Below, one piece after another: positions 1,162-63,611 of a stretch of 64,000 nucleotides of DNA. Origin of the DNA: a bacterium (GTDB lineage Bacteria > Spirochaetota > Spirochaetia > Treponematales > UBA12059); the NCBI GenBank assembly GCA_035530295.1, contig DATKVB010000009.1:13587-77586 (forward strand), given 5' to 3'. Within the stretch, counting starts at the first letter, position 1. The number at the start of each line of letters is the position of its first letter. The notes beneath the pieces were generated by a model that saw only the letters and a list, made by a program, of their open reading frames with translations, made no database searches and was not told where the DNA came from. The translations under genes and the position numbers were made by a program.

Positions 1162-1247
1162 GATGGCCTCCGGCCGTCAGCCGACGGCTAGGTTAGGGTT
1201 GTCCGCCAGTATAGGCGTGGCTCAAAGCTGGTGTCAACGACAGGCAC

Positions 1248-2543: not shown

Positions 2544-2651
2544 GGGCTAGAGTATAGCGCGTTTCGAAGCATTTTGTGACGGGGGCAAAGCCTGGCTACG
2601 TCACAAAAACGGACTTGCGCCGTCCGATCGAGTGGCTTATGCTGTGGCGCC

Positions 2652-4449: not shown

Positions 4450-7400
4450 CTATTTCCGCCTGATCAGCATCATCGTCAGGTCGTCGTACTGGTCATCCTC
4501 CTTGAGTCTGCCATAATACCGGTATTCGGTGCGCTTTGGATCCGGATGCGGACGCCTGTCGGCGCAGAATCGGTCGTACTGCAGCCAGCACTTGGCCAGG
4601 ATCGCGTCAATCTTCGTGTCGACAATGACCTGGTCCTTCTCGGTTACGTCGGGATCAGGTACCAGCCTGAAGACCTTCTCGACGGCCGCGAGGCCGAGCA
4701 CCAGGTCCTCGGGGCTTGCGTCCAGCCTTGAGAAATCGAAGTCGTAGCTCAGATCGGAGCCGAGCGGATCGTCTTCCTTGGTAAACGAGAAGGCTCCCCT
4801 GGACATGATGGCCTCTGTGGCGGCCTTGATGCGATCCTCTCCCAGTTGCTCCACCAAGGCCTCGCGGTGGGTGCTCTCATTGCCTTCGCGATCGACAATC
4901 TTCTTGTCCTCGAACAGCTGCTTGAAGTCAGGTCCGCGCCTGGCACGGCTCGATTCCTCGAAACCGTCGGTGTAGAGCAACAGGATGTCTCCGTGGTCGA
5001 GCCGTATCTTGACCTGCTTGTAGACGGCGCTTAAATCGAACATCTCGCTTGATATAGCTCCGGCGGCGGGGGCGTTTTCAAGCTTGTGGACGACAACCTG
5101 GCGCTGCTCGGGCTTGTACACTCTGACGATGTTGTCGCCCGCGTGACACAGGTAGGTATCTCCCGTCTTTGAATCGTATACGCCCATGACAAGCGCGGCG
5201 AACAGGCCGCTGAAGCCGCGCCGTTCCAGGAAGTCGTTGATGCGCGCCGTCAGCGCGTCCAGTTTGATGCCGTCCTTCTTGTAATTCCAGCCCTGGAAGC
5301 TTGTCGTGAATATGGTCGCGACGCCGACCATGATGAGGGCCGCCGGCACACCCTTGCCGGAGACATCGCACTTGATGAAGGCCCAGTACTGGCCGTCGAG
5401 CGGCCTGTAGTCAAAATAGTCGCCGGAGACGCCCTTGGCGCCTTCATAGTAGCCATAGAAGCTGTGTGTCGGCGTGTCTTCAAAGCCGGTTGTCAGTTTC
5501 TCGCCCAGAGCGTTCTGGATAAGCGGAATGAACATCTTCTGGACGCCCTTGCCTACGGTCAGGAACTCGGCCTCGGCGGCCGCGTGTACGAGTCCAGTGG
5601 TCATCTCGTTGATGGTGCCTGCCAGAATCGCGAATTCGTCCTTGCGCTTGATGTCTATCGAGAAGTCGGCCAGGTTCTTCTTGTCCGGGGTGTCGCGTAT
5701 GTGCTTGATGCCCTCGACCACCTTCATAAGCGGTCTCAGGATCAGGCCCGACAGCGCGAACGAGCCGGCAATGCCTATGGCCAGGGCTATGGCGGCGACT
5801 ATGGCAATGCTTCTGATCAGTGTTGCCCGTGCCGCCTTGACCTCGGCGACTATAGGAGCGGTTGACACTGAGAGTCTGACGAGTCCCCGATAGAAGACAG
5901 TCTCCCTGCCCTGCCTGAACAGGATGGGCTTGTAGAAGACATACTCGGCAGCCTGAAGGCCCAGCTTGTTGGGATCAAACGCCGGCTCCGAAGCGACCGA
6001 CGCGTTGGCTATGGCAGTCAATCGTTCGCCCAGGGTTTTCTCCAGATCGCGGGCACTGGCGGCTATCTGCTCGAGCCTGGTCTGGCTCTGCGTATCCAGC
6101 TTCGCCGCCAGCGCGCGGCCCTCGTCCTGGAGCTGCTGGATGGCGTCTGCTATCGTTCCGACCTCGCTGTTCGCCTTGGCGTCTATCTCGGCGGCCATCG
6201 CCGGTATCAGCGGCGAAAGGCTGTCAGACAATATCGATGTGCCGGCGACAAGCGATGTGCCATCTATCTTCTTGAGTATGTCTTGATCGTTGCTGGCCCA
6301 TACGACGTCGGGGTTGGTGGTGCCGCTGGCTCCGAACCCGGTGATCGTGAGGTAGCGGGCCTCGGCTATGGCGCTTGCCTGGTTGGGCAGGAGCGACAGT
6401 TCCAGTATGTTCTTGGCGGGCAAGTACGACTTGCCGCCCTGCGCGGCGCTTTCAAGCAAGACTCTGGCCCGTTGCTCGAGGCCCCTGGCCAGGATCTCGC
6501 TCTGGGTTCCAAGCATCTGGGCGCCTAGCGGAATGGAAACGAGCAGTACGATGAATATGACGAGGAGGCTTATGGTCATCGCGAACTGCGCGGTCAGGCC
6601 GGAACCTCTTCGTATCGCGTTTTCTGCCGCCTTCTTGCGTTCGGTTTCTGGCATCGGGGTTCCTCCCAAAAGGGCTATGGCCTCCTGTCTGGCCGCGCGC
6701 ATTTCGCCGGCAAGGATGACAACCTGTCTAAGCGACAGGATCATGCCGAGCGCGGGAATGAGCAGAGCAGCTATCAGGAACAAAGTCGAGAGTCGGACAA
6801 GGAAATGTCGGGTCGGCTCGAATGCCCAGGTAGGCTTCCAGGGCTCGCCGCGGTCGCCGAACTTGACGGTTCCGGTGTAGTCGACCGACAGGCGCGGGCC
6901 GGTAAAGTACCAACCCCGGGTCTGATGATGCAGCCCGATACGATATGTGCTAGCCGCGAGGTCCACGATCTCCGGAATGGTTATCAGCCGGTCGGAGACT
7001 ATCGAGAATCCCTTGCCGGCCCGATCATAGACGCGATCGTACGGTTCTTTGCCATCGGCATCGATGACGACCGAGGTTATGGTTCCGTCGTCGGCAAAGC
7101 CCCTGCCGAGTATGGACAGGCGCAGCGTGCCGAATTCGTCCCGGGTCGAGGCGACATCGGAGACGGCCGTAAACGGCATGAACTTGTCGGCGCGCAACAG
7201 TATGCGCGAAGCCAGACCTATGTTGCCAACGCGGTCGATTGCCGCCACGGAGAAGGCCCAGAAGCCATCGTCGATGTTGGAGAAGTCGGCGCGCGGGACG
7301 GTGGTTCTGACGGTTGGCGGAGGTGATGCCGGCTGCCTGGCCGACCAGAGACGCTGCTCATAGTCGGTGGATGGCAGAAGGTTGTAGGTACCGGCTGTCA

Positions 7401-9159
7401 GTTCTGCTGTGGCGCGCGCCGATGCCAGCCGGCGGGCGGGCGGGCGGTCCAGTGGGCCAAGATAGTCGAGTACCCAGGTATAGCCAGCTACATCGGGATC
7501 GGGTGGCGGAGCCCAGGATAGCGCGAAGCTGTTGGATGCCATGAAGCCATCGGCGGAGGCCGCGGGCGGGAACGGCAACGGAGTTCCCGGAGGCGTCGTA
7601 TCCCTGACGAAGCGCAGGCGCGCCGTCTTTGACCAGTTGCCGGCATAGTCCTCGGCCCGTATTGAGAAGTACCAGTCGCCGTCCTGGTCGGCGTCAAAAC
7701 TGGCGCTTGTCTGGTTCTCGAGCGCGCCGACCCGCAGTGGCGGCTCTGCCGCCGCGTCGCGCGACCACAGGTACGAGAATCCAAGGATGCCCGAGGAGTC
7801 GTCTGGCGACTTCCACCGTATGTTCGCGCGGCTTCGCCTGGTCGGCGCTCCTTCATCGAAATCCACGGCGACAGGCAGTGGCGCCTGCACGCTGGTGTCG
7901 GGCATCATAGCCAGGACCGACGACGCGGTGCCACGGCCGGTCTGCCAGAATACATAGAGGCCGCGCGCCGTATAGACGGCTCGCCCGAAGGCACCATCAC
8001 CACGTGATTTGCCAGACAGGTCCTGCTCGTTCCAGAGTGTGCCGCTACGGAACGCGATATATACGCGGCTGCCACCCTTGCGGTCATCGAACCAGGCTAC
8101 CGCCGGCTCGCCATTGGCGTCGAGCAGTCGTGGTTCCGAGCACGAACCCTGACCCAGGGTAACCCGTTCAACGCTGTCGGGTACCACCGCGCTTGTGGCA
8201 TCCAGTCGTGCCGCGTATATCTGCGCGGGGCCGGACAGCACCCGGCGTTCCCAGGCCATCCACAGCGACCCGCCGACCTGGGCAAGGTGCGGGCGCTGGT
8301 TGTCAAAGTCGCCGGCGCTGGTCCTGTCCTTGCGCACCGGGTCCAGGAAGTTGGTGATCCGGCGCGGAGCCGACCAGGTGGCTCCGCCGTCTATCGTCGA
8401 CACGGAAAAGAGCTGGTAGCTAGGCCTGGCTCCGCCAGTCAGCGACTGGAAGACGACGACGTCGGTGCCGTTGATCGAGGCCGCGCTCGGCAGGAAGTTC
8501 GGGTCGAGTCCCACTTCTCCGCCAACGAACGGCGCGAATGTCGTCCAGGTAGTGCCATTTTCAGAACGCGCGTAGAATATGGAGAGGGACTGGTATGCCG
8601 CCCTGTCTCCATTGTCCTGTAGGCGCGAGAACGTCTGCTGGCGCGTAACGAACAGATACCAGCCGCCTCCAGTCTTGGTAAAGATACGCGGCGCAACCCC
8701 TGGCTCGGTCATCTGGATGACCATTGGCGGCGCAAAATCAAGCCCGCCATTCTTGGATTCATACAGCGAGACACTGAGTTCACCGGAAGTGGCGGCGACG
8801 ACCATCGTGCCGTTGCCGTCAGCCGCGGCCGAGAACAGCACCGGGGCGTCGCCATTGTATGGCAATGGGCCGGCAAAGTGATCGCGCCGCTGCACGCCAT
8901 CGGTGCCATACGAGGCGAGCGACAGCCATGCGGAGCCGCCATCGCCGGACGGAACATTCTCCTGCCACATGACGACGACCCGGCCGGCCGTGCTTATGGC
9001 CTGGGGGTAGGCGCCAACGCCGGTGGACAGCCGCGTTGGCGACTCCCAGTAGAAGTCAGGTGGCGCGGCGGTAACGGGCACTGACACCAGCAACGCGCTG
9101 CAGAGCGCGGCGATCGCCAGCGCCGGCTTCAGGCGTGACCAATTCCGGTATCGCATCAC
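4450..9159 (-). CDS. large membrane sensor protein phosphatase (BNR repeats - HAMP - PP2C/SpoIIE)
   Basis: 1569-aa ORF with a signal peptide and BNR-type repeats (STIDGGATWS, SENGTTWT). It has three predicted TM helices and a HAMP-like linker after the third. The C-terminal SpoIIE/PP2C blocks are GVSGDYFDY, CDVSGKGVPAALIM and LLLYTDGFEES. Confidence 0.85.
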   Translation of the reverse strand: MMRYRNWSRLKPALAIAALCSALLVSVPVTAAPPDFYWESPTRLSTGVGAYPQAISTAGRVVVMWQENVPSGDGGSAWLSLASYGTDGVQRRDHFAGPLPYNGDAPVLFSAAADGNGTMVVAATSGELSVSLYESKNGGLDFAPPMVIQMTEPGVAPRIFTKTGGGWYLFVTRQQTFSRLQDNGDRAAYQSLSIFYARSENGTTWTTFAPFVGGEVGLDPNFLPSAASINGTDVVVFQSLTGGARPSYQLFSVSTIDGGATWSAPRRITNFLDPVRKDRTSAGDFDNQRPHLAQVGGSLWMAWERRVLSGPAQIYAARLDATSAVVPDSVERVTLGQGSCSEPRLLDANGEPAVAWFDDRKGGSRVYIAFRSGTLWNEQDLSGKSRGDGAFGRAVYTARGLYVFWQTGRGTASSVLAMMPDTSVQAPLPVAVDFDEGAPTRRSRANIRWKSPDDSSGILGFSYLWSRDAAAEPPLRVGALENQTSASFDADQDGDWYFSIRAEDYAGNWSKTARLRFVRDTTPPGTPLPFPPAASADGFMASNSFALSWAPPPDPDVAGYTWVLDYLGPLDRPPARRLASARATAELTAGTYNLLPSTDYEQRLWSARQPASPPPTVRTTVPRADFSNIDDGFWAFSVAAIDRVGNIGLASRILLRADKFMPFTAVSDVASTRDEFGTLRLSILGRGFADDGTITSVVIDADGKEPYDRVYDRAGKGFSIVSDRLITIPEIVDLAASTYRIGLHHQTRGWYFTGPRLSVDYTGTVKFGDRGEPWKPTWAFEPTRHFLVRLSTLFLIAALLIPALGMILSLRQVVILAGEMRAARQEAIALLGGTPMPETERKKAAENAIRRGSGLTAQFAMTISLLVIFIVLLVSIPLGAQMLGTQSEILARGLEQRARVLLESAAQGGKSYLPAKNILELSLLPNQASAIAEARYLTITGFGASGTTNPDVVWASNDQDILKKIDGTSLVAGTSILSDSLSPLIPAMAAEIDAKANSEVGTIADAIQQLQDEGRALAAKLDTQSQTRLEQIAASARDLEKTLGERLTAIANASVASEPAFDPNKLGLQAAEYVFYKPILFRQGRETVFYRGLVRLSVSTAPIVAEVKAARATLIRSIAIVAAIALAIGIAGSFALSGLILRPLMKVVEGIKHIRDTPDKKNLADFSIDIKRKDEFAILAGTINEMTTGLVHAAAEAEFLTVGKGVQKMFIPLIQNALGEKLTTGFEDTPTHSFYGYYEGAKGVSGDYFDYRPLDGQYWAFIKCDVSGKGVPAALIMVGVATIFTTSFQGWNYKKDGIKLDALTARINDFLERRGFSGLFAALVMGVYDSKTGDTYLCHAGDNIVRVYKPEQRQVVVHKLENAPAAGAISSEMFDLSAVYKQVKIRLDHGDILLLYTDGFEESSRARRGPDFKQLFEDKKIVDREGNESTHREALVEQLGEDRIKAATEAIMSRGAFSFTKEDDPLGSDLSYDFDFSRLDASPEDLVLGLAAVEKVFRLVPDPDVTEKDQVIVDTKIDAILAKCWLQYDRFCADRRPHPDPKRTEYRYYGRLKEDDQYDDLTMMLIRRK

Positions 9160-9161
9160 GT

Positions 9162-12100
9162 TCAGTAGCCTCTGGCCGCGAGGCGCGCGTCGAGGTCGGA
9201 GACCTTCTGCACCGATAGCCCGCGCGGGAATATGGCGACAAGCCTGGTCAGCCTGGTCCTGGCGTTCAGATAATCGCCGCTTGTAAAGAATCCGACGGCA
9301 TCGTTGTACAGAGACTCGGCGGCACTGGAGAGCACGATGGCTGTATCGCCTCCGATGTATGTGGCTATACGGTCCTTGAGCCTGGAGGCGGCCTCGTTGT
9401 TCGGGTCAAGCGTTATTGCCTGTTCCAGCTGGGTCCGGGCAAAGGGGAACTGCGCAACCTGGCCGGAATCGAATATGCGCTGGGCAGCCTGCACGAGCGA
9501 CCGTGACTGGGCAATCGCCTTTGGATCAGGCGGCGGCTGTCTGAACCCGAGCAGTATCTCGGCCCGTTCTATGACCGTGCGGAGTCCGGAATAGCGCGGG
9601 TTGATGGCCTCGAGGTCCTTGAGGTCGCTGTAGGCTGTGGTCAGGTCAGTCCTGGAATCGACCTTGGCCTTGGCCTCGTTGAACATTCTCGCGAACTTGA
9701 TGCCGAACTGGTCGGGGTCGGACAGCTGGTCTATCTTCAGCTCCAGAACGCGGGCTTCCTGATTGAGCGGAAAGACAACTTTGACTTCCGATATCTTCTG
9801 TCGTGCCTGGTTGAACGACTTGATCGCGCCTGTCTTGTCACGCTTGGCAAGCAGGTTCGCCCCATCTTCGTAGTAGAGCTTGGCCAGCGATAAAAGCTGG
9901 CTCATCTCCGGGAAGAGCGGGGCTGTTACAGGAATATCACGGCCAGTCTTGACCGACAGCGCGGTCTGGACCAGTTTGAGCCAGTATTCGACCTCCACCT
10001 CCGGGGTCGTGTTTGTGGTGCTCCATCGTGACCTGGCCTGCAGTAGCGTGGATTCCGCCTGGTCGAACTGGCCTTGCAGGTACAGATCCTTGCCGCTGGT
10101 CAGGAGGCGCCTGGTCTCGGTGACGACGAGATCGTTTTCTGTTTTCAGTATGGTGTTGGCGAGATCCGAAAGCAGCTTGTCTGACTGGGTGCGCAGAAGC
10201 GGGTCCTGTTCGTAGGACAGCGAAGCGAGGTAGCGCTCCCGGGCACGTTCGAGCCGTTCCCTGGCTCCATCGAAGTTGTTCGCCTTCAGCGCGGCTTTTG
10301 ATTCTGTGACGCGGCGTTCCGCCTCGAGCCGGGCGGAGTCGGCCAGGCGCTTCTGCTCGCCGGCCTGCGTCATCAATGACGCGTTCTGGGCCACGGTGGC
10401 GCTTGTTGATGTGGACAGGTCGGCCGCCCGTGTCAGCCACTCCTGCACCGAGGCGTCCGAGGCGATGTAGCCGGGCCGCGATCGGTATAAGGCAAGGAAG
10501 GCGTCGATGGACGCGCGGAGGCCCTTGAGCGTGGTGTCGGCCGAACCGAGCGCGGCCAGAGCCTTGCCAGGGTACTTGAACACGGCATCGGGCAGCAATG
10601 GATCGTCTGATTGCACGCCGGCGAGCAGCGTGGAGCCCGTGGTCATATCGGTCTGGGCGGTCTTCAGGGCAGCCGCAAGGATTCCGTATTCATACCCGGC
10701 TGCCGACGCTATGGCCCGGGTCTCCATAGCGCGGGCATGGTCGGAAGCCAGCGCTATGCGGCCATCCAACAGGCCCTGTTCGGTGCTCGAGAAGTCTGAG
10801 CCATATCCCGCCTGCGTCCACACGGCGAGCCTCGAGGCCGACGCGCCCGATTCGTCGTGAAGAGTCTGTATCGATCCATAGGCCTTGACGAAGGCGGCTG
10901 CCCTGGCGTTGTACGCTGCCAGAGCCTCGGTCCTGGCATTGGCCGGAGGCGTGTACGCGGTGAGGGCCGCGGCTTCGGTATCGATGCTGGTCTGGATGGT
11001 CGCAAGGCGCGTGTAGGCCCTGGCCAGGTTCGCCGTCTGCAGGTACCGCAGGTAATCCGATCCCTTGAGCTTGAGGGCGGCCTGGCCGAGCGGTGTCGCC
11101 TGTTCGACCAGGTCGCTTGTCGCGTAGTGGCTCCAGAGTGACACCAGGGCTATGCCGCGGTCGGCAAGCGTGGCCACCTTGTCGAACCCGGCCTGTGCCG
11201 CCGGCCAGGTGCCGGCATCATAGGTGGCGCGCGCCAGTTCGATCTCCGCCTTGATGGTGTCATCGAGGGCTGTCTGCGCGGAGCCGAGCGCGCCGGCCCA
11301 GCCGGCATCGATGGCGCCGGCCACACCTTCGAGTTTTCCCTCCGTCTTCCTGCCCAGGACGAGGCGGAACGCGAACGGCAGGAACGAGTTGTCCGTCGCT
11401 GCCGGATTGTTGGCCGAAATGGCCGCGAACGTCTGTTCAAGTGCGCGACCCTGGTCGACTATGCCTCTCCGTATCTCGGCGACCGACAACGCCTCTGCCT
11501 CTGCCTTATTCCACGCTTCGGCTACCGCCTTGTCGTCACCCGCGCGGTAGGCTGCCGCGAGTGCGGCGAACGAGTCATTCATGGCGCCGAGGCCGTCCGT
11601 GAACCGGATGATGTCACCCGATATCGTTGAGACGCGCTGGAATGAGTCGTCGACGATGGCCTGGTCAAAACTGCCATCGGCGAACTCGGGCCGGTAGAGC
11701 ACGAAACCGGTTTCGTACAACTGCGCCGCCTCGGCGAATTTGCGGTTGTCTATCAAAACCCGGCCGTTGGCCATGATTTCCTCGAATTTCGCGCGGTTAT
11801 AGGTAAACAGGGCCAGGTACTTGGTCTGGGTGATGAATTCCTTGACGGCTGGATTGGGGTTTCGCTCGAAATTCTCGAGTTCCCTGATCATCGTTATTTT
11901 CTTGTCCTCGTTGGTCGGCTCCTTGACCATCGTATCGAGGAGGTTGAAGGCCTTGTCATTGTACGCGGAACGTATCTTGGTGATGCGCCTGAGCCGCTGC
12001 TGGGCGGCATCGAACCTGTCTGGATACTGCTTCATGAAATCGGTGAGATACAGTATCGCCTGATCATATTTTTGGTCGGCTATCAAGGTGTCGGCGTAGA

Positions 12101-51751: not shown

Positions 51752-52501
51752 CTAGCGATCCCCCGCGTCCACATGAAATCGTCCCCGCCCTTGCCTTCTC
51801 GCCTCGATGATGGCCGCTCGGGCTCGCTTCAGGATTTCTGGCCCTTCGCTGGGTTTGCCGACGGCCGCGCCGACCGCTCCACCTATCCATATCGTCTGCG
51901 AGTCTAGCTCGACCGGCCTGCACAGCGTCTCGACGAGCTGGCCGGAGCGCTCCTCCGCCGTCTCAAGCGCCCTGGCGGGCACAACCGTCGCTATGGCGGC
52001 AAAATCATCATCGCCGGTACGCGCGGCTATGCCGTCGGAGCCGGCGAATGTCGAGACACGCTTGGCAACCTCGACCAGCACCGTATCCGACACCGATTTG
52101 CCGTATCGTCGCTCTATCTCGTCGAAGTTGTCGAGGTCGGCGCTCATAACAATGATGCTCTTGCCTTCCTGCGCAATCAGGCCAGCTTTCTCGGCCAGCC
52201 ACGCGGCCAGGCCGTTTGCATTGGCAAGTCCGGTCAGCTCGTCGATCCTGTCAGATGGTATGGGTTCATCACTCGACCTGGCTGCCGACAAGACGGGCGC
52301 GGCCGCCACCGACAGGCTCAGCCGCCCTATCCGCATGAGCAGAGCCGCAAGCCCTCCCGCGACAACGATTCCGCCCAAGGCACCCGGAGCTCCGCCAATT
52401 GCCGCGCCGACCGCTCCAATCAGGGCCGATGCGGATGCGACCAGGGCCGCCATCATGATGGCCCCGGAGTAACCCGAAATGCTTGATCTTTGTGTGCTCA
52501 T
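51752..52501 (-). CDS. membrane-anchored GGDEF-domain protein with degenerate active site
   Basis: N-terminal TM helices and the block DELTGLANANGL. The signature reads RTGDDDF where RxGG(D/E)EF is expected. Confidence 0.7.
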   Translation of the reverse strand: MSTQRSSISGYSGAIMMAALVASASALIGAVGAAIGGAPGALGGIVVAGGLAALLMRIGRLSLSVAAAPVLSAARSSDEPIPSDRIDELTGLANANGLAAWLAEKAGLIAQEGKSIIVMSADLDNFDEIERRYGKSVSDTVLVEVAKRVSTFAGSDGIAARTGDDDFAAIATVVPARALETAEERSGQLVETLCRPVELDSQTIWIGGAVGAAVGKPSEGPEILKRARAAIIEARRQGRGRFHVDAGDR

Positions 52502-52604: not shown

Positions 52605-53594
52605 ATGGCAAGCATGGAGCAAACATACAGAGCGCTCATACCCGATGCCATTCCTGTCGATAAGGGAAATGAGAAAGTGGGTATGGCTTCAAAAACAGGT
52701 TTCGCAGTTTCAGATTCGGATAGACGTCTCATCCGTGACAACGCGCACTACATCCGTGAGGCGCTGTTCTCGTGTATTACCGATACGCAGGTGGAATGCT
52801 CCGTCGCCTTTGCCCGGTACCTGGCGCGAGCTGGGTTGAACGCCGAGAACTACTGGCTGTTCCTGCGGCTCGTCATGACAAACAATCCGTGGGTGCTTGA
52901 CGAGCTGATGCACGAGCGAGAACCGCGCCTGCTGTTCTCGACCATTCTGCCCACAGAGGAACTCGTCGAGACCGCCTTCCAGGCTCTGTTCTCAAGGCAT
53001 CCAGACGAAATATACCCCAAGGCTCTCGAGGCTCTGCTTGGCATAGTCGAGAACGCCTACTTCGACCCTGATGATGGATACCGCCTCCGCAAGCTGTCGA
53101 TCATGGACATCAACGCACTGGGCAAGTTCCTCCGCAAGGACGAGCCCCAGGAACATCCCGTCAACCGCCTTATCCTTGAGATTCTTGACAAGCTGACCGG
53201 TCTTGGGGAGTACTTCCAGGAGCCTGACAAGAGCGTGTTGTCCAAGCATGCCTTCAATGTCCGGTTTGCCTATTTCGACAGGGCCAGGAACATGGTCGAC
53301 GCGATACCGCATCCGTTGCTGGTTCGGTTCGCCGACCGCAGTTCGGCCGACCCCGAATCGGACTATGCCGACCTGATAACCAAGCGGCGCGCGCGCAGGC
53401 GTGACGAACGCGGTCGCTTCATACGTGAATCGCAGCCGGATGCCGAGCCGACCATAGTTGCGCCAACAGCAGTTGAGCCAACCTTGGCCAAGGCACCAGT
53501 GATTGAGCGAGCGATAGTCGAGACCGCAGCAGTTGGGCCGCCGCCAGTTGAGCCGCAAGCGGCTCCCAAGCGAAAGAGAAAGAAGACGAGCTGA
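52605..53594 (+). CDS. unknown-family protein, paralog 1 of 4 (with Pro/Val/Glu-rich, basic C-terminal tail)
   Basis: Shares NYWLFLRL, IYPKAL, DGYRL, DINALGKFL, NRLILEILDKL and IPHPLLV with the ORFs at 55639, 56359 and 57142. An alternative start at 52683 would give paralog-like N-terminal spacing. Confidence 0.7.
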   Translation: MASMEQTYRALIPDAIPVDKGNEKVGMASKTGFAVSDSDRRLIRDNAHYIREALFSCITDTQVECSVAFARYLARAGLNAENYWLFLRLVMTNNPWVLDELMHEREPRLLFSTILPTEELVETAFQALFSRHPDEIYPKALEALLGIVENAYFDPDDGYRLRKLSIMDINALGKFLRKDEPQEHPVNRLILEILDKLTGLGEYFQEPDKSVLSKHAFNVRFAYFDRARNMVDAIPHPLLVRFADRSSADPESDYADLITKRRARRRDERGRFIRESQPDAEPTIVAPTAVEPTLAKAPVIERAIVETAAVGPPPVEPQAAPKRKRKKTS

Positions 53595-53649: not shown

Positions 53650-54621
53650 ATGGCGAGGAAGACTGACACCAGTATCATTCGGGCCCGGGAAAAGCCTGTG
53701 GACCCAGCGTCCATACCGCCCCACTCCGATGTCCTGCTGGTAGAGCGGGCGATAGACATAATAAAGGACGACGCCTGCAGGCCCCACGATTCGCGCGGGC
53801 AGCCGGGTGGACTCCTGTACCTGCCGGATGGGCTGCGGCCCATCATCGTGGGCGATCTGCATGCGTGCGTTGACCATCTCGGCAATATTCTTGATCACGA
53901 CAACAACAGGCGCGATATGGACGAGGGCCGCGCCTACCTGCTCTTCGTTGGCGACATTCTGCATGACGACCGTGTCGGCTACATGCGCGAGACTGCCAAC
54001 TCCATCCAGATACTCAACCAGGTGCTTACGCTGGTAGCCACCTGGCCAGGCAGGGTATTCTATATCCGTGGCAACCATGATACCTTCGACGAGCGCCTGA
54101 GGAAATCGGGCGTTGCCCAGGGAGCCGAATTCAAGAAGGCCCTTATCCAGATTACTGGCCAGGCCTTTACTGACGCGGTTGCCCGCTGGTTCGAGGCGCT
54201 GCCATATTTTGCCATCGGCGATAGCTTCGTCATCGTTCATGCGGGCCCTATACGGGGTGGCTGCACGCGGGAGGAAATCATAGACATCTGGAGGCGTCCC
54301 GACTACGCGATGCAATTCATGTGGAACCGCGTCAACGAGTTCCATGGCAACCCCAGCCCCAAGGAATATGGCGAGACCGATATCAGGATGACACTCGAGT
54401 CGCTTGGATTGCCGCCCTTGACCCACTTTATCGTCGGTCACAACCCACTCTGGAACGATGGTGGAACGACTGGCTTGTGGGAAAACGTGATTGGCATAAA
54501 GAATCACCACATCATCTATTCCGGTTCCGGGAGCAAGGCCCCCTACTATACGCTGGAAGGCGGGTTGCTCAAGGCCAAATTTTCCAAACCAGAGCGAGCG
54601 GAGGTGTATTACTATGGATGA
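53650..54621 (+). CDS. PPP-type metallophosphoesterase (Ser/Thr phosphatase-like)
   Basis: ATG at 53650 after AAGGAGGG. Ordered motifs are GDLHAC, GDILHD, GNHD, VHAG and GHNP. Confidence 0.8.
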   Translation: MARKTDTSIIRAREKPVDPASIPPHSDVLLVERAIDIIKDDACRPHDSRGQPGGLLYLPDGLRPIIVGDLHACVDHLGNILDHDNNRRDMDEGRAYLLFVGDILHDDRVGYMRETANSIQILNQVLTLVATWPGRVFYIRGNHDTFDERLRKSGVAQGAEFKKALIQITGQAFTDAVARWFEALPYFAIGDSFVIVHAGPIRGGCTREEIIDIWRRPDYAMQFMWNRVNEFHGNPSPKEYGETDIRMTLESLGLPPLTHFIVGHNPLWNDGGTTGLWENVIGIKNHHIIYSGSGSKAPYYTLEGGLLKAKFSKPERAEVYYYG

Positions 54622-55528
54622 ACGACAACGCATGCTCGCCGAGCTCGATGATCCGGAGCTGGCTTCATATTTCTACCTTGACAAGACCATGCCCGAGGTG
54701 TTGCGTTATCTCGATTCCCTGCAGCTGACGCTTGATCCGCTCGCAGACGACATGCCTTTCAACGCGGCCGTCAAGGGGTATGGTGGGGCCAAGGATATGC
54801 AGGGGCACCCATGGATTGTCAAACCTATAACCAACAAGCAGGACATTCTATACCACAGGCTATGCACGCTGGCGTACCTCCTGGACCATGCTACTGGCAC
54901 GCTCGCGGCGCCCACGGGCATCGCGAGCATCGACGGATCGGTGTACCGCATAACCAAGGTCGTGCGCAAATCAATACAGATCAGCTCGTACCCATACCTT
55001 GACCAGCCATACATCGGCATCATCAGGGCCGACCTGGTCAACCGCTGGCTGTACTTTGATGAAGACCGCAATCCCAACAACTATCTGGTTGTCCACAACC
55101 GCAAACAGCGCCCCTTTGTTGTCGCCATCGACTACGACAAGGCCGATCTGGCGTCTCCCGTAATGAAGATAACAGGCGACCAGCAGAAATTTGGGTGGTT
55201 CCGCAGTGAGAAGACCCGATTCCTGACCCTGCTCCGACCTACGCACTTCGATGGCATATCGATAGACGTGTTTGATGCCAGGCTCAAGGCCATATGCGGC
55301 ATCACCGAGGCCGAGTTGCGGAGTATCGTCCATCAGCTACTGGACGCCTATTCGGACGCGGCCTATGCCGATGCTATCGTGGCCAACCTGCTGGCCAGAC
55401 GTGCCTACATCGATGAGTATTTCAGGCGCATGTTCAAGTCAGCAGCCGAAACAACCGATTCCAGGCATGATGATGACTACGCCGCCTTCGGTGATAGCTT
55501 CAGAAACATGTATAAAGACAAGAATTGA
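54614..55528 (+). CDS. atypical kinase-like protein (PI3/4-kinase type II / HipA-like catalytic loop)
   Basis: 8-nt overlap with the phosphatase gene. Contains WIVKP (candidate Lys), FDEDRNPNNYLVV (DRxxxN-like catalytic loop) and VVAIDYDKAD (DFG-equivalent). The functional call is tentative. Confidence 0.5.
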   Translation: MDERQRMLAELDDPELASYFYLDKTMPEVLRYLDSLQLTLDPLADDMPFNAAVKGYGGAKDMQGHPWIVKPITNKQDILYHRLCTLAYLLDHATGTLAAPTGIASIDGSVYRITKVVRKSIQISSYPYLDQPYIGIIRADLVNRWLYFDEDRNPNNYLVVHNRKQRPFVVAIDYDKADLASPVMKITGDQQKFGWFRSEKTRFLTLLRPTHFDGISIDVFDARLKAICGITEAELRSIVHQLLDAYSDAAYADAIVANLLARRAYIDEYFRRMFKSAAETTDSRHDDDYAAFGDSFRNMYKDKN

Positions 55529-55558: not shown

Positions 55559-55587
55559 TTGACAATTGGGATTTCGGGGATTAGAAT
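55559..55587 (+). promoter_or_regulatory. sigma-70-like promoter inside the paralog locus
   Basis: TTGACA, a 17-nt spacer, then TAGAAT. The -10 element is embedded in the hairpin GGGGAT-taga-ATCCCC. It lies 52 nt upstream of the ATG at 55639. Confidence 0.5.
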
Positions 55588-57943: not shown

Positions 57944-59800
57944 TTGTCATCGGGCACAGTACTGCGCGAACGCGCCATCATCAATGATTGCTACATACTC
58001 CGTGAGCGCGTTGGCCATGATGCCTACTGCGAAATATGGCGTGCCAGCGCACTCTTCTCTGCCACGAACTTCCTGGTTCGATTCATCGACGCCAACATCC
58101 CCGTTGAATATTGCGAGGCCGAGCGGCGACTGATCATGGATGCCTATGACGTCCGCCACGCGGCGATTCTCGATGTAGTCGAGGTCGACCGCTTCGGGAC
58201 GCTGATGTTTATATCATCGGAATACAGCGCACTGGTAACGCTCGAGCAGGCCTTGTCGGGCGGCATAACCTTCTCACTCGATCACATCTGCGGCTTTGCG
58301 CTTGAGCTTTCCCAGGCGCTGGACATGTTCAACCGCCGTGGGCTTGTCTATGGCACCGTGAACATGCAGGCTATATTTGTATCATTGGAGCAGGGCATCG
58401 TGACCGAACTCAAGCTCCTGAAGCCGGGGTATCTCCCGCTGGTCGGTTCGGCGAGCAAGCTTGATCCTGATGCGATGCGCTGCAACTATGGCTTCATGGC
58501 GCCTGAATGCAAGGGCGGCGCATTGACAAGAGCCGATCAGCGGGCTGATGTATATTCTCTGGGCATCCTGCTCTACAGGCTTATAACAGGATCGATGCCA
58601 TTCCGCGGAACTCACGCCGGGCGTGCGCTGGACGCTCCTGTTTCGGTCCGGCACATATCCAATGCTTTGATACGCCGGGGCGTACCGCCGGCGCTGGCAA
58701 GGATCATCGTCACCTGTGTACGGACAAACCCGGCGTCGCGGTATCCAAACATGGTAGGGCTGATCCGGGAGCTGCGCATGTTCCTGGATGACAGGCGACT
58801 TGCTACGATAAAGCGAGGAGCCGCGGACCCACTCGCCGACCTGGAGAATTTGAACTCAACCAAATCGGCTGGTGGCGCGGAACAGGTGCTGCGCAAGCTT
58901 GATATGGCAGAATACTTTGGCGCGCTGTCCGAGGGCATAAGTATGGAGCCGGATTCCGACTCGGGGCAGCGATTTCCAACCGGAGTATCGCTCGGCGAGA
59001 CCAGGTCGGGTATGGCGGGCGAAGCCGAAGAAATCTCAGAGATGGGCGACACCGATATCGAGAGCATGAGCGCCCAGGACCATGTCGACGCAAGCCTGAG
59101 CCTTCTCGGGATATCGGTGTCCGCCCGCGCTACCGGAGCGACTGGCCGGCCGGTGGCCACCGGGAACGCCGCGCTCCTGTCCGCCACCCTGGATGCATCC
59201 GCTGCGGAGACAGGGCCAGGGCCAGTACCCGGGGCGGCCTCCGAAGGCATGGTATCGATGTCCTCTGCAACCGGCCACCGTGTACTGTGGAGCCATGTGC
59301 GCATTGACTCGGAGGAGCTTGCCGCTTCGCTCATTGAAGCGTGCGAATCAGCGCGGCACAAGCGTGGCGCGTTCCGCTATATACAGGAGCCAGCTGGAGA
59401 GCACGGCATGCGGTTGCTTTCTGACCTTGTGGAACGTATGCGGCAGTCGTACTTTGTGCTGGACATGTCGACGGGCAGCCATGGCCTCGATGAGTTTGTT
59501 CCGGCAATGCAAGCGGCTATTGCCATATCGCTGCGCGATGTCTCGCCGGGCATCAGGCGCAGGCTCAAGACTCGTTTCCCCGCGGTACTGCAGTCGATCG
59601 GAACATCGGCTGATCCTGGAGCCGCGGCGCTTGCGTGTGCCAGGATGGCAACGCGATCAAGACCATTGGTCCTGATGCTCCGCGTCGTCGCCCCGACGGA
59701 TGATGCCCTTGGAACATTCTTCGAGGCACTGGCCGCGATAGCCCACCATGAGCGGCTCTGCGTCTTTGCGTTTTTCTCCGGTGAGCCTCCGGTAGCCTGA
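57944..59800 (+). CDS. Hanks-type pseudokinase with long C-terminal region (possible degenerate P-loop NTPase module)
   Basis: The kinase fold is retained (YGFMAPE, DVYSLGILLYRLITGSMPF, NPASRYP). The VAIK Lys is replaced in LVRF, HRD-x4-N reads VYGTVNMQ and DFG reads KPG. TTG start; no in-frame ATG lies nearby. Confidence 0.65.
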   Translation: MSSGTVLRERAIINDCYILRERVGHDAYCEIWRASALFSATNFLVRFIDANIPVEYCEAERRLIMDAYDVRHAAILDVVEVDRFGTLMFISSEYSALVTLEQALSGGITFSLDHICGFALELSQALDMFNRRGLVYGTVNMQAIFVSLEQGIVTELKLLKPGYLPLVGSASKLDPDAMRCNYGFMAPECKGGALTRADQRADVYSLGILLYRLITGSMPFRGTHAGRALDAPVSVRHISNALIRRGVPPALARIIVTCVRTNPASRYPNMVGLIRELRMFLDDRRLATIKRGAADPLADLENLNSTKSAGGAEQVLRKLDMAEYFGALSEGISMEPDSDSGQRFPTGVSLGETRSGMAGEAEEISEMGDTDIESMSAQDHVDASLSLLGISVSARATGATGRPVATGNAALLSATLDASAAETGPGPVPGAASEGMVSMSSATGHRVLWSHVRIDSEELAASLIEACESARHKRGAFRYIQEPAGEHGMRLLSDLVERMRQSYFVLDMSTGSHGLDEFVPAMQAAIAISLRDVSPGIRRRLKTRFPAVLQSIGTSADPGAAALACARMATRSRPLVLMLRVVAPTDDALGTFFEALAAIAHHERLCVFAFFSGEPPVA

Positions 59801-59925: not shown

Positions 59926-60972
59926 TTATCGCTTGTTGAGGTACTTCCTGATATCGATAGCTACCGCCGCAATGATGATCGCGCCTTTTACTATCTGTTG
60001 CCAGTACGGCGACATGTTGATGAAGGTTAATCCATAATTGATGACGCTGAAGATCAGGACGCCGACAAGCATGCCGGGCACGGTGCCGATGCCGCCCGAG
60101 GTGGAGACTCCGCCCACGACGCAGGCCGCGATCGCGTCGAGCTCGTATCCGTTGCCATAATTGTTGGTAGCACCGCCGGTCCTGGCGGCTTCAAGCGCTC
60201 CGGCCAAGCCGTAGAGCAAACCCGCTATCGTGTAGGCGATAAGAAGATTCCTGGTCACGTTGACGCCTGAAACCTTGGCGGCCTCGGGATTGCCGCCGAT
60301 CGCGTATATGTTCTTGCCAAAGGTTGTCTTGTTGTGCAGTACCCAGATTATGAATGCCACGCCAAGCGCGATGATCACAATGAATGGCACGGAGAGCCTG
60401 CCATCAAATCCCAGGTATCCAGAGCCAAGCGATGTAAAGCGCTTATCCAGACCGCCTATCGGCTGGGCTCCATAGGGGGGCCTGTCGAAATACAACGATG
60501 TAGCTCCATAGACGGCGACCATGGTGCCCAAGGTGGCAATGAATGGCGGGACCTTGAGCTTCGAGACTATCAGTCCATTGGCAAGGCCAATGATGCCGCA
60601 CACGACCATGGCGGCCAGGATTGGCACGATCAGTGGCAGCTGGCCAAGGTTTGGATACATCCTGCGGGGATAGTCGATGGCCTGCAGCAACGAGCCTGAT
60701 ATGACCGCGGCCAGTCCCACCATGCGGCCCGCAGAAAGATCGGTGCCGCCCGTTATCAGGATGCCGCCTACGCCCATGGCTATGATGATGCGCGTAGCGG
60801 ACATGGACAGGATGTTTCTGAAATTCTCTATCGACAGGAATGAAGGTTCCTTGATTGTTATGCCTATTATCAGGATGACAAAGACGAAATAGATCGCGTA
60901 CCGCAACGCGAAATCAGACACGGCACGTTGGCCTGGACGCTCTCCGAGCGCTGTTTTATCTTGCTTGGACAT
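59926..60972 (-). CDS. mglC: galactose/methyl-galactoside ABC transporter permease
   Basis: 348-aa multi-TM ORF of the MglC/RbsC permease family, positioned downstream of mglB-mglA. Confidence 0.8.
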   Translation of the reverse strand: MSKQDKTALGERPGQRAVSDFALRYAIYFVFVILIIGITIKEPSFLSIENFRNILSMSATRIIIAMGVGGILITGGTDLSAGRMVGLAAVISGSLLQAIDYPRRMYPNLGQLPLIVPILAAMVVCGIIGLANGLIVSKLKVPPFIATLGTMVAVYGATSLYFDRPPYGAQPIGGLDKRFTSLGSGYLGFDGRLSVPFIVIIALGVAFIIWVLHNKTTFGKNIYAIGGNPEAAKVSGVNVTRNLLIAYTIAGLLYGLAGALEAARTGGATNNYGNGYELDAIAACVVGGVSTSGGIGTVPGMLVGVLIFSVINYGLTFINMSPYWQQIVKGAIIIAAVAIDIRKYLNKR

Positions 60973-60983
60973 CGATGTCTCCC

Positions 60984-62501
60984 TTACTCAAAGAGCGCCG
61001 CGAGGCGCATGATTTCTTCCTGCGTTGTGGTCTTGCCGTCAAGGATGCCCGTTTTTCTGCCATCGCACATGACCATGATCCTGTCCGACATGCCGATCAG
61101 TTCGGGCATCTCCGAGGATATCATGATGATGCTTTTGCCGCTCGCGGCAAGGTCGGCGATGATTGTGTATATTTCATACTTTGCGCCAACATCAATACCA
61201 CGCGTTGGCTCATCGAGTATCAGGATCTCCGGTTCGGTAAGCAGCCATTTGGCAAAGAGCACCTTCTGCTGATTGCCTCCGGAGAGATCCTTTATCAACG
61301 TCCTGTAGCTGGGTGTCTTGATGCGCAACTCGTCAATTTTTCTTCTGGTATCTGCCACGCCAAGCTTCTCGTTGATCAGCCCGGTCTTGCCTACGTAGCG
61401 GGCGATGTTGGCCAGAAGCATGTTCTCCTTGACGCCAAGCATTGGAATGATGCCAGTCGCCCGGCGTTCCTCGGTGAGCAACGAGAAGCCTTCACCCATC
61501 GCGTGTACGGGTGATCGCATCTTGATGGTCTTGCCACGAAGCTCGATGTGTCCCTTCTCGATAGCCCTGAGACCGAAGATTGATTCCACCAATTCGGTGC
61601 GTTTGGCGCCGACCAGACCACCGATGCCGAGAATTTCTCCCTTGCGCAAATCAAACGATATGTCCCGGAACGAATGGCGCTCGGCCGAGGTCAGGCCTTC
61701 GACTCTCATAACCACGTCTCCCGGAACATTCGACCGCGGTGGGAAGCGGTGCGTCAGATCGCGTCCGACCATCCGCTTGATTATCACATCCGTGGTCAGC
61801 TCGCTGGACGGCCAGGTACCGACGTGCTTGCCATCGCGCATTATGGACACCTCGTCCGCTATCTCGAGTATCTCTTCCATCTTATGGGAAATATAGACTA
61901 TCGCGGCCCCTTCGGAACGGAGCCGGCGTATGATGCCAAACAGGTGGGCGACCTCATGCTCGGTCAGCGAGCTCGTCGGTTCGTCCATGATGATGACCTT
62001 GGCGCTGTAGGAGACCGCCTTGGCAATTTCTATCGATTGTATCTTGGACACGGAAAGGTTCTTGACCCAGATCGCGGGGTCAATGTCCATAGCCAGGTTC
62101 TTGAACAAGGTCTTGGTATCGGATCGCATCTTCCTGTGGTCCACCAGCTTGAAAGGACCAAAGCCTCTCAGCGGATATCTGCCGAGCCACAAATTCTCTT
62201 CAACGCTTCTGTTCGGGACCGACAAAAGCTCCTGATGTATCATGGAAACGCCACTGTCCAGAGCCTGTCGGGAATTCTGGAATCGTACCGGTGTGCCATC
62301 GAGCACTATCTCGCCCTGGTCGGGAGCGTAAATGCCAAAAATGCACTTCATCAAGGTCGACTTGCCGGCGCCATTCTCGCCCATCAGGGCGTGAACCGAG
62401 CCTGGGCGAACCTTGATTGAGACATCGTCCAGTGCCTTAACGCCCGGGAAGCTTTTTGATATGTTTTTTAATTCCAGGACATATTCAGCGCTCATGTGCA
62501 C
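60984..62501 (-). CDS. mglA: galactose/methyl-galactoside ABC transporter ATP-binding protein
   Basis: 505-aa duplicated ATPase with GENGAGKST, IIMDEPTS, LSGGNQQK and LILDEPTRGID. Confidence 0.85.
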   Translation of the reverse strand: MHMSAEYVLELKNISKSFPGVKALDDVSIKVRPGSVHALMGENGAGKSTLMKCIFGIYAPDQGEIVLDGTPVRFQNSRQALDSGVSMIHQELLSVPNRSVEENLWLGRYPLRGFGPFKLVDHRKMRSDTKTLFKNLAMDIDPAIWVKNLSVSKIQSIEIAKAVSYSAKVIIMDEPTSSLTEHEVAHLFGIIRRLRSEGAAIVYISHKMEEILEIADEVSIMRDGKHVGTWPSSELTTDVIIKRMVGRDLTHRFPPRSNVPGDVVMRVEGLTSAERHSFRDISFDLRKGEILGIGGLVGAKRTELVESIFGLRAIEKGHIELRGKTIKMRSPVHAMGEGFSLLTEERRATGIIPMLGVKENMLLANIARYVGKTGLINEKLGVADTRRKIDELRIKTPSYRTLIKDLSGGNQQKVLFAKWLLTEPEILILDEPTRGIDVGAKYEIYTIIADLAASGKSIIMISSEMPELIGMSDRIMVMCDGRKTGILDGKTTTQEEIMRLAALFE

Positions 62502-62537
62502 TCCAGGTAGATTGAGTCAGAAGCCTGCCCGGTAGCC

Positions 62538-62585
62538 CTGAACCCGGAGGACAGGAGCCTGGTGGCCCGCGTCCTCCGGGTTCAG
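62538..62585 (-). promoter_or_regulatory. intercistronic stem-loop between mglB and mglA
   Basis: Perfect 15-bp inverted repeat CTGAACCCGGAGGAC ... GTCCTCCGGGTTCAG with an 18-nt loop. Confidence 0.55.
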
Positions 62586-62600
62586 ATCCTTCTGTAAGGC

Positions 62601-63611
62601 TTATTTGAACTGCGTATAGTTGTCCTTGGTAACCTTCTGGTACGGAACCCAGACATACTTGCCATCGGAGATGGTCCAGCCGACGGTCGCGGGATCCTTG
62701 CCTGTGGCAAGGGCGAACGCTATGTCGAAGGTAGCTTTTCCCTGGTTCTTGGCATCGTTGAGGACGGTGCCGAGCAGGGTGCCCTGCTCAAGAGCCTGCA
62801 GCGCCGGAGCGGTGGCATCAACGCCTACGACCGGCAGGTACTTGTCGCCGGCGAAGAAGCCTTCCTGGCGGAGGGCTTCGATGGCTCCAAGGGCCATGTC
62901 ATCATTGTTGCAGAGCACTACTTCGATGCGGTTGCCAAACTTGGCCCAGAAGGCCTTCATCTTCTCGACGGCCTTGGGGCGATCCCAATAGGCGGTGTCT
63001 TCGGCGAGCTTCTCGACCTTCATGCCGGCGGCGGTGATGGCCTTGATTGAATACTCGGTGCGCAGCTCCGCGTCCTGGTGTCCTGGCTCACCCTTGAGCA
63101 TGATGTACTGTATGATTCCGTCGCCGTTCTTGTCGGCCTTGGGATTGGCTTTGAAATAGTCGACGACGATCTCGCCCTGCATGGTACCCGACTGCTCGGC
63201 CTTGGCGCCGACATAGTAGACTTTGTCCCACTTGGCCATGTCCTCAGGAAGGGGCTCGCGGTTGAAGAAGACCACAGGGGTCGAGCGGGCCTTGGCCTTG
63301 TCAATGATGGCGGCGGCTGCGGTGCGGTCAACGGGGTTGATCGCTATGACCTTGGCCTTCTTGGACAGGAACGCGTCGACTTGATCGTTCTGGGTCGGCT
63401 GGGCGTTCTGGGAATCGACCATCTCGACCGTGGCCTTGCCTGTCGCGTTGGCCTCGATTGCGTTTCTTACGTATGACATGAACGTGTCATCGAACTTGTA
63501 GATCGCTACGCCGATTTTTGGCATGGCGCTTTCCGCAGTCTTGGTGCCGCAGGAGACAACGAGCGTCCCGAGCACGACCAGGGCGGCGAGGATCGCGAAT
63601 AACTTCTTCAC
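62601..63611 (-). CDS. mglB: galactose/glucose-binding periplasmic lipoprotein
   Basis: GTG start after GAGGAGG and the lipobox VVSCG. Contains IGVAIYKFDDTFMSYVRNAIE, colinear with E. coli MglB. Confidence 0.85.
   Translation of the reverse strand: MKKLFAILAALVVLGTLVVSCGTKTAESAMPKIGVAIYKFDDTFMSYVRNAIEANATGKATVEMVDSQNAQPTQNDQVDAFLSKKAKVIAINPVDRTAAAAIIDKAKARSTPVVFFNREPLPEDMAKWDKVYYVGAKAEQSGTMQGEIVVDYFKANPKADKNGDGIIQYIMLKGEPGHQDAELRTEYSIKAITAAGMKVEKLAEDTAYWDRPKAVEKMKAFWAKFGNRIEVVLCNNDDMALGAIEALRQEGFFAGDKYLPVVGVDATAPALQALEQGTLLGTVLNDAKNQGKATFDIAFALATGKDPATVGWTISDGKYVWVPYQKVTKDNYTQFK

Follow-up and report, generated by a model that had tools for sequence, protein, structure and literature searches.

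What is a protein kinase fold kept for once the residues of its active site have been replaced? The question is raised by one gene in a 64,000-nucleotide stretch of DNA from a spirochaete of the Treponematales (contig DATKVB010000009.1 of assembly GCA_035530295.1, positions 13,587 to 77,586), which is called the window here and whose numbering is used for all coordinates. The gene, at 57944..59800 on the + strand, starts with TTG, encodes 618 amino acids (aa) and closes a cluster of seven genes. It is called identically in three assemblies, and the public record with the identical protein (P0001) is annotated 'protein kinase [bacterium]'. A word-indexed search returned seven full-length homologues at 68-100% identity. 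An earlier note on this DNA, made from the letters and a list of open reading frames (ORFs), had described the product as a pseudokinase possibly fused to a degenerate P-loop module of the AAA_16/STAND type at its C-terminus. The ORF list bears out the location and length, and our analysis supports the description while refining it: the C-terminal module amounts to a truncated AAA_16 core that no STAND domains follow, and the gene belongs to a conserved set of seven clustered genes. A double-dead architecture, with a dead kinase joined to a dead AAA_16 core, is very likely, and the public label 'protein kinase' is misleading.

The kinase-like domain and its catalytic positions

The N-terminal part of the protein (residues ~10-285; 57971..58798, + strand) was assigned as a Hanks-type pseudokinase domain on its Pfam match, an alignment to PknB, a census of its family and the ratio of nonsynonymous to synonymous substitution rates (dN/dS). 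The Pfam Pkinase family (PF00069) matches residues 70-267 with 45.0 bits and an E-value of 1.1e-11, the curated cutoff being 31.7. The solved kinase domains of PknB and Stk1 align over residues 12-285 with E-values of 2e-11 to 5e-9, and the NCBIfam model PknB_PASTA_kin scores 64 bits, far under its equivalog cutoff. The catalytic positions were assigned by residue-by-residue alignment to PknB of Mycobacterium tuberculosis. In the G-loop, GFGGMSE of PknB is replaced by GHDAYCE, of which GHDAYC occupies residues 24-29, and the glycines are gone. VAVK in beta3 reads FLVR, with the Lys turned into R46 (58079-58081). The HRD triplet is YGT (58349-58357), and the whole of HRDVKPAN reads YGTVNMQA, which exchanges the Asp for T138, the Lys for N140 and the Asn for A143. 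DFG has become KPG at residues 160-162 (58421-58429), with K160 in the place of the Asp. The residue aligned to the alpha-C Glu, Glu59 of PknB, is L63; Glu residues lie three to five positions upstream, in a region that is variable in the family. APE is kept at residues 186-188 (58499-58507), and DVYSLG (202-207) and the subdomain XI Arg (R266) are still present in the PknB alignment.

Together with the Pfam match, these assignments place the substitutions where the earlier note had put them. The strings that it quoted from the catalytic region are found at residues 23-28 (VGHDAY), 44-47 (LVRF), 135-142 (VYGTVNMQ) and 160-162 (KPG), and those quoted from further downstream at residues 182-188 (YGFMAPE), 202-220 (DVYSLGILLYRLITGSMPF) and 262-268 (NPASRYP). 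Its statement that subdomains VIII-XI are preserved agrees with the retention of APE, DVYSLG and the subdomain XI Arg. The catalytic Lys, the HRD Asp, the catalytic-loop Asn and the DFG Asp are all missing from the alignment to PknB, and no Lys, Asp or Asn was found there in a shifted catalytic position.

The substitutions at the catalytic positions are invariant across the seven full-length close homologues. A wider family of 77 sequences was assembled from an exhaustive search with a hidden Markov model (HMM) of the C-terminal domain (40 matches) and from spirochaete genomes, and was aligned to the family HMM; the census below leans on this HMM alignment of divergent sequences. At the HRD Asp position, an Asp is found in none of the 76 aligned relatives, among which the residue varies freely (T, C, N, S, V, L, G and others). 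The beta3 position holds Arg in 60 of the 77 and Lys in two. The DFG positions hold Lys (47), Pro (61) and Gly (61), with Asp in two sequences, and the catalytic-loop Asn, which is A143 in the 618-aa protein, is retained in 25/77. In a 29-sequence family alignment the G-loop takes the form GxD, with an invariant Asp (D26) at the position of the second glycine. The catalytic residues have thus been swapped for a new conserved set, namely GxD, R, [YFH]G and KPG, which argues that the active site has not merely decayed. Measured against two relatives, the dN/dS of the domain is 0.07-0.09, where dS is near saturation and the values are approximate. Judged by its sequence, a recognisable kinase fold that is under selection and lacks all three residues of the catalytic triad is a pseudokinase.

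The kinase-like domain is followed by a conserved segment (residues 286-330; 58799..58933, + strand; RRLATIKRGAADPLADLENLN...AEQVLRKLDMAEYFGALS), delimited by homologue alignment and dN/dS. It has the pattern DPLADL..LN...A..VLRKLDMAEYF, which is almost invariant in close homologues and recognisable across the wider family, and its dN/dS is 0.03 in comparison with the relative L006. The acidic, Ser-rich linker described in the earlier note is real: residues 331-444 (58934..59275, + strand) are rich in Ser, Ala, Gly and acidic residues by composition, and are poorly conserved in the family alignment. With 18 Ser and 9 Thr in 115 residues and a dN/dS of 0.33-0.36, the linker holds a single conserved acidic short motif, EEISEMGDTDIESMSAQDHVDASL (also written EEISEMGDTDIESMSAQDHV), whose family pattern places an acidic run before [LW][ST]x[DE][DE][YF][VIL].

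The C-terminal domain and its likeness to AAA_16

Residues 445-618 (59276..59797, + strand) form a truncated, degenerate core of the AAA_16 type, that is, of a STAND-type P-loop NTPase. This assignment combines an AlphaFold2 model, a Foldseek search of its structure, profile-profile alignment with hhalign and HMM searches. The AlphaFold2 model of residues 444-618, built from a 7-sequence alignment, has a predicted local distance difference test (pLDDT) score of 86.9 and a predicted template modelling (pTM) score of 0.85. Its elements run in the order helix-beta1-helix-beta2-three helices-beta3-helix-beta4. When the model was compared with the PDB using Foldseek, the top 50 matches were almost exclusively P-loop NTPases. 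The best was RdrA of the RADAR system (E-value 2.6e-3, probability 0.99, TM-score 0.50), followed in the list by the AAA+ domain of Sir3, PCH-2, ORC1, MalT, the clamp-loader delta subunit and ATPases of the ATP-binding cassette (ABC) type. The E-values are weak individually, and the set of matches is consistent.

For comparison at the level of profiles, 120 real PF13191 proteins were retrieved, 81 complete AAA_16 domains were excised from them, and these were aligned by hhalign with the 29-sequence alignment of the C-terminal family. The two profiles align over 154 columns with a probability of 90.4%, an E-value of 1.4e-6 and a score of 45.0. Controls scored 11.7 +/- 2.1 (maximum 17.3) when columns were shuffled, 22.0 +/- 2.8 (maximum 28.2) when blocks of 12 columns were shuffled, and 23.5 when the alignment was reversed. 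An HMM of the 81 domains gave family members up to 30.8 bits; 11 of 58 exceeded 11.9 bits, and the maximum among 580 shuffled sequences was 7.7. Pfam AAA_16 itself matches the C-terminal domain in all eight orthologues tested (E-values of 1e-4 to 0.24, 12-23 bits, cutoff 32.6), and it is the only non-kinase Pfam family that recurs among them. Scanned against Pfam at E <= 10, the domain of the 618-aa protein and its counterparts in six close homologues returned nothing beyond noise (Tnp_DNA_bind, PqqD). An exhaustive hmmsearch with the C-terminal profile against 1.8 billion representatives returned 40 matches, all of the same family, with no canonical AAA_16 protein among them; sequence-to-profile search alone could therefore not bridge the distance to AAA_16.

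The hhalign alignment reproduces the register of Walker A and Walker B that the earlier note had proposed from two strings, which are found at residues 474-495 (RGAFRYIQEPAGEHGMRLLSDL) and 574-589 (PLVLMLRVVAPTDDAL). The stretch G-A-F-R-Y-I-(Q)EPAGEHG falls on the AAA_16 consensus G-x-v-v-L-V-GEPGIGKT, which makes QEPAGEHGM (59384-59410, + strand) the Walker A equivalent. RPLVLMLRVVAPTDDAL falls on RPLvLVLDDLHWADxxS, with LVLMLRV (59666-59686, + strand) as the Walker B equivalent, in which R580-V581 replace the two Asp, and the strand CVFAFF falls on LLvgTYR. The loss of GxxGxGKS and of the Walker B acids extends to every family member with an aligned position: Lys stands at the Walker A Lys position in 0/57 sequences, and the first acidic position of Walker B holds Arg in 46/56 and Asp or Glu in 0/56. 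The core measures ~175 residues, and the 618-aa protein ends 10 residues past its last strand. Most orthologues extend only by a short 'W-H-x-L-S-x-L' tail, with no downstream helical or winged-helix arm and no sensor repeats. The dN/dS of the domain is 0.135-0.17, again approximate with dS near saturation. Set against the value of the linker, those of the two dead modules indicate that both are under purifying selection. In summary, the degenerate P-loop module suggested by the earlier note is supported by predicted structure, controlled profile alignment, HMM scores and Pfam matches of orthologues, all of which agree.

The seven-gene cluster and its distribution

The cluster, which is hitherto undescribed and is conserved across Spirochaetia, consists of seven co-directional genes in the order long paralogue, phosphatase, 304-aa protein, P1, P2, P3 and pseudokinase. 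The order is unchanged in the examined relatives, whose pseudokinases are 27-72% identical, and the flanking genes differ. P1, P2 and P3 (55639-56337, 56353-57069 and 57142-57843, + strand) are tandem paralogues of ~233 aa by alignment. The long member of the P family (52605..53594, + strand; 329 aa) is 33-39% identical to them and carries a Pro/Ala-rich basic C-terminal tail (KRKRKK). Motifs shared by all four include NDNYP, DGY[KR] and DVNxLGKxL. No Pfam or PDB match was found for the four paralogues, even with a 23-sequence profile, and they constitute a very strongly constrained family that is new to Pfam and the PDB.

Two further products of the cluster resemble signalling enzymes, and both look active. 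The second gene (53650..54621, + strand) encodes a calcineurin-like metallophosphoesterase with the PPP-type motifs GDLHA, GDILHDD and GNHD (Pfam Metallophos, E-value 2.7e-10). It has weak NCBIfam matches to ApaH and Pnkp and no sequence match in the PDB, and its position is conserved in all related loci. Its end overlaps by 8 nucleotides the start of the third gene (54614..55528, + strand), whose 304-aa product was assigned as an atypical protein-kinase-like protein from its AlphaFold2 model (pLDDT 89.8), Foldseek and invariant columns. The model matches PI4KIIalpha (7.9e-5), CtkA of Helicobacter pylori (1.4e-4) and HipA (4.7e-4) in Foldseek. K70, D149-E-D-R-N-P-N-N156 and I172-D-Y-D175 are invariant in the 62 sequences of its family. 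DRHxxN and DFG-like motifs are found in PI3/4-kinases and HipA, and by likeness to these the 304-aa protein should be an active atypical kinase. Pfam matched none of the 62 members and a sequence search of the PDB gave only noise; the protein defines a kinase-like family missed by sequence profiles. A HipA-like toxin-antitoxin reading of this kinase was considered unlikely because the synteny is class-wide and the neighbours are highly conserved.

A sigma-70-like site (TTGACA, a 17-nucleotide spacer and TAGAAT; 11/12 near-consensus) lies at 55559-55587, within the 110 nucleotides that separate P1 from the kinase-like gene. P1-P2-P3-pseudokinase may be transcribed from it as an internal promoter, which would fit the movement of this block as a unit in other genomes. 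A small membrane-anchored GGDEF-domain protein with an N-terminal hydrophobic segment (51752..52501, - strand; Pfam GGDEF, E-value 5e-25) adjoins the cluster in all loci examined. The GGDEF signature is degenerate, reading GDDDF here and GEDDF, GTDEF, SGDEF or EGDEF in relatives, and the protein may represent a third degenerate enzyme at the locus. Downstream of the pseudokinase, 59926-63611 (- strand) encodes a sugar ABC transporter made up of a permease, an ATPase and a periplasmic binding protein. In the homologous contigs compared (L004 and L005), another binding protein and a two-component system lengthen this block. In a relative with 70% identity, the genes directly after the pseudokinase are those of FeoA and an HWE histidine kinase; the transporter block is thus an insertion/deletion difference at the edge of the cluster.

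With P1 as the query, a genome scan yielded 77 loci; apart from a single one, they lie in metagenome-assembled genomes (MAGs) of Spirochaetota. The loci span Treponematales, Rectinemataceae, Marispirochaeta, Alkalispirochaeta, Sediminispirochaeta and Sphaerochaetaceae. Counting inverted cases, the pseudokinase lies beside P1-P3 in 51 of the 77. In a Treponematales-type group (33 loci) it comes after P3 and includes the AAA_16-like domain, and the fusion family is restricted to Spirochaetia, in Treponematales-type lineages. In the Marispirochaeta/Sediminispirochaeta group the pseudokinase is convergently oriented and its kinase is still dead. In L052, L071, L063 and L059 (Marispirochaeta, Alkalispirochaeta and related MAGs) the AAA_16-like domain is missing from the protein, and a long low-complexity tail that ends in a basic amphipathic stretch, for example FFARLRHFVKKVIRRVTSPFRK, takes its place. 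A distant spirochaete MAG, L080, has five tandem P-family paralogues (5399-9317) instead of three plus one, and on the opposite strand a phosphatase and a 302-aa ORF that takes the place of the kinase-like gene, is presumed to be its homologue and has no Pfam match. A 591-aa neighbour in L080 was tested as a diverged pseudokinase and ruled out.

Relative rates were estimated by comparing the window proteins with two distant spirochaete genomes. Identity is 87% for P1, 84% for P2, 67-70% for P3, 56% for the 304-aa kinase-like protein, 53-56% for the phosphatase and 27-30% for the pseudokinase. The values for P1 and P2 hold between spirochaete orders, across which the neighbouring enzymes are about 55% identical. 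Rearranged and duplicated forms of the cluster were also seen. In L008 (OY759746.1), a complete long-read spirochaete chromosome, a 2.35-kb P1-P2-P3 block is present twice (739-3090 and 8944-11295) at >99.8% identity and 8205 bp apart; the copies flank pseudokinase-GGDEF-long paralogue-phosphatase-kinase, and the second adjoins transposase remnants. This arrangement looks like a circular permutation of the gene order in the window. OY762953.2, OW818665.1 and DAOPYF010000010.1 each have two P1 matches.

Proposed role, rival explanations and known systems

How could such a protein act? We regard a functional link of the pseudokinase to the cluster as highly probable, and we lean towards the explanation that it is a non-catalytic organiser of the cluster's signalling module. 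More specifically, a soluble protein composed of two pseudoenzyme modules could serve as a non-catalytic scaffold or allosteric adaptor for the kinase/phosphatase module, a mechanism suggested by its dead sites and gene neighbourhood for which we see even chances. The kept surface of the C-lobe (APE, DxYSLG and the subdomain XI Arg) would be a likely docking site, partner docking or phosphate acceptance would likely fall also to the post-kinase segment and to the acidic motif of the linker, and the dead AAA_16 core would likely support nucleotide-independent self-association or partner binding, as in Sir3. A more ambitious reading, which we put forward tentatively, is that of a Spirochaetia-specific and hitherto undescribed phospho-signalling machine, in which the doubly dead fusion would organise the atypical kinase and the phosphatase acting on a hetero-oligomer of the four paralogues, whose fold would be new. 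The paralogue assembly would then possibly be structural or cytoskeletal, and the degenerate GGDEF protein might be an input or an output.

Several findings weigh against the organiser role and the double-dead architecture beneath it. The scaffold function is read solely from the dead sites and the gene neighbourhood, and SelO and SidJ are precedents of pseudokinases that appeared dead by sequence and were later found to catalyse other reactions. No gene of the cluster evolves faster than the pseudokinase, which is at 27-30% identity where P1 is at 87%. Most members of the Marispirochaeta/Sediminispirochaeta group swap the C-terminal domain for a long low-complexity tail, and L080 has no pseudokinase near its cluster. 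Since one subgroup is without the AAA_16-like domain and L080 without a nearby pseudokinase, the protein is accessory rather than core to the module; it is a fast-evolving yet persistently linked component. The C-terminal domain of the 618-aa protein itself has no Pfam match even at an E-value of 10, the C-terminal profile drew a single chance match (E-value 1.6) from PDB sequences, and Foldseek is weak (best E-value 2.6e-3, TM-score about 0.5). As the protein's own domain has neither a Pfam nor a PDB match, the evidence for its AAA_16 ancestry comes from the family profile, the orthologues and the predicted structure.

This last point invites the view that the C-terminus holds an interaction domain of a generic alpha/beta (Rossmann-like) type whose likeness to AAA_16 is convergent or compositional. 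The missing Pfam match speaks for it, as do Foldseek E-values of 1e-3 to 1e-1 with TM-scores <= 0.5, and the C-terminal family and AAA_16 are both rich in Ala, Arg and Leu. Composition is poorly suited to explain the hhalign score of 45, however, which is ~8 standard deviations over block shuffles that preserve composition and twice that of the reversed control. The alignment also runs the full length of the domain and keeps Walker A, Walker B and the next strand in register, a plain HMM search and Pfam AAA_16 specifically pick out the orthologues, and the top 50 structures are nearly all P-loop NTPases. We therefore hold the generic domain to be very improbable. Retention of a non-canonical activity in the kinase-like domain, be it nucleotide binding via R46/K160 or AMPylation or glutamylation as in SelO and SidJ, appears very improbable. 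The new conserved set (R46 in 60/77, Y/F/H-G, K-P-G, and D26 invariant in the 29-sequence alignment), the strong selection (dN/dS 0.07-0.09) and the Asn held in the catalytic loop of about one third of orthologues all speak for it. Yet an acid is found at the HRD Asp position in none and at the DFG Asp position in two of 77, the free variation of the former does not fit catalysis, the G-loop glycines are gone while the invariant Asp should repel phosphates, and the 618-aa protein has A143 in place of that Asn.

Alternatively, serving as substrate, decoy or regulated target of the cluster's kinase and phosphatase might be what the protein mainly does: the two enzymes would add phosphates to, and remove them from, the Ser/Thr-rich linker or the kept activation segment and so switch what it binds. 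The Ser/Thr-rich linker (18 Ser, 9 Thr) with conserved Ser/Thr in its acidic motif, the kept activation segment and APE, and the presence of an apparently active kinase and a phosphatase in the same cluster are consistent with this. However, the linker is poorly conserved outside that one motif (dN/dS 0.33-0.36), and a substrate role is compatible with the scaffold model; as the main function we find it rather unlikely. That the gene is a decaying, functionless remnant of a kinase-STAND gene would account for the loss of every catalytic motif and for the fastest evolution in the cluster, but the gene keeps an open frame throughout Spirochaetia, both domains have dN/dS values well under 1, the new motifs are invariant and synteny is conserved. 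These data on selection and conservation effectively refute decay. A reading as a defence system was dropped as well: the PADLOC matches (PD-T4-6, Mad6, MkoA and PglW) are generic kinase-domain matches, no partner gene matches any defence model, and the cluster is syntenic and slowly evolving.

To our knowledge, bacterial pseudokinases have hardly been studied experimentally, and a literature search on spirochaete pseudokinases returned nothing relevant. A kinase-STAND fusion in which both nucleotide-using modules are dead and nevertheless selected offers a clean natural case for non-catalytic roles. The cluster adds a kinase-like family undetected by profiles, a phosphatase and four paralogues that are more conserved than the cluster's enzymes and have no known domain. 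All of these products are at present called 'hypothetical' or, in error, given the label of an active 'protein kinase'. Should the cluster form a single functional unit, it provides a tractable entry to a lineage-specific regulatory system of spirochaetes, and should the machine reading be true, bacteria would have a new signalling architecture with a single polypeptide of two pseudoenzyme modules at its centre.

Known systems resemble parts of this architecture. PknB and Stk1 give the best sequence matches to the kinase domain and share with it the bilobal fold and subdomains VIII-XI, but the full set of catalytic residues, the transmembrane segment and the PASTA repeats of PknB are all absent from the 618-aa protein. 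STRADalpha-MO25-LKB1 is a eukaryotic assembly of pseudokinase, adaptor and kinase, with helical adaptor proteins, and serves as an allosteric or scaffolding analogy. The likeness is that of a working analogy, a dead kinase fold found alongside an active kinase; the sequences are unrelated, and the kinase of the cluster is PI4KII/CtkA/HipA-like, not Hanks-type. The AAA+ domain of Sir3 (PDB 3te6), a P-loop fold of the AAA+/ORC clade and the third-best structural match to the C-terminal model, belongs to a dead ORC1 paralogue that has lost nucleotide binding and acts as a protein-interaction module. It is eukaryotic, about 10% identical, free of a kinase and placed in another biological context, and the likeness is one of working, not of family.

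The closest described architecture is that of CP1, a family of bacterial Ser/Thr kinases and pseudokinases that are always fused to the predicted ATPase COG3899 (O'Boyle et al., PMC12599244). About 40% of CP1 members are pseudokinases, two of which occur in the spirochaete Leptospira (PMC12599244), and COG3899, like AAA_16, is a P-loop ATPase domain with a Walker A motif (bioRxiv 10.1101/2024.03.06.583649). A 2025 review counts only seven families of bacterial pseudokinases (PMC12599244), and compared on architecture and motifs none of the seven matches the present protein. Likened on architecture, CP1 and the fusion family both combine, in a cytosolic protein, an N-terminal Hanks-type kinase with a C-terminal P-loop module of the AAA_16/COG3899 type. 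In contrast to CP1, the ATPase of the 618-aa protein is dead too and reduced to a ~175-aa core without the downstream helical/TPR part, its family has replaced the three kinase motifs with the new conserved set R / YG / KPG, and that family is confined to Spirochaetia and tied to a specific seven-gene cluster.

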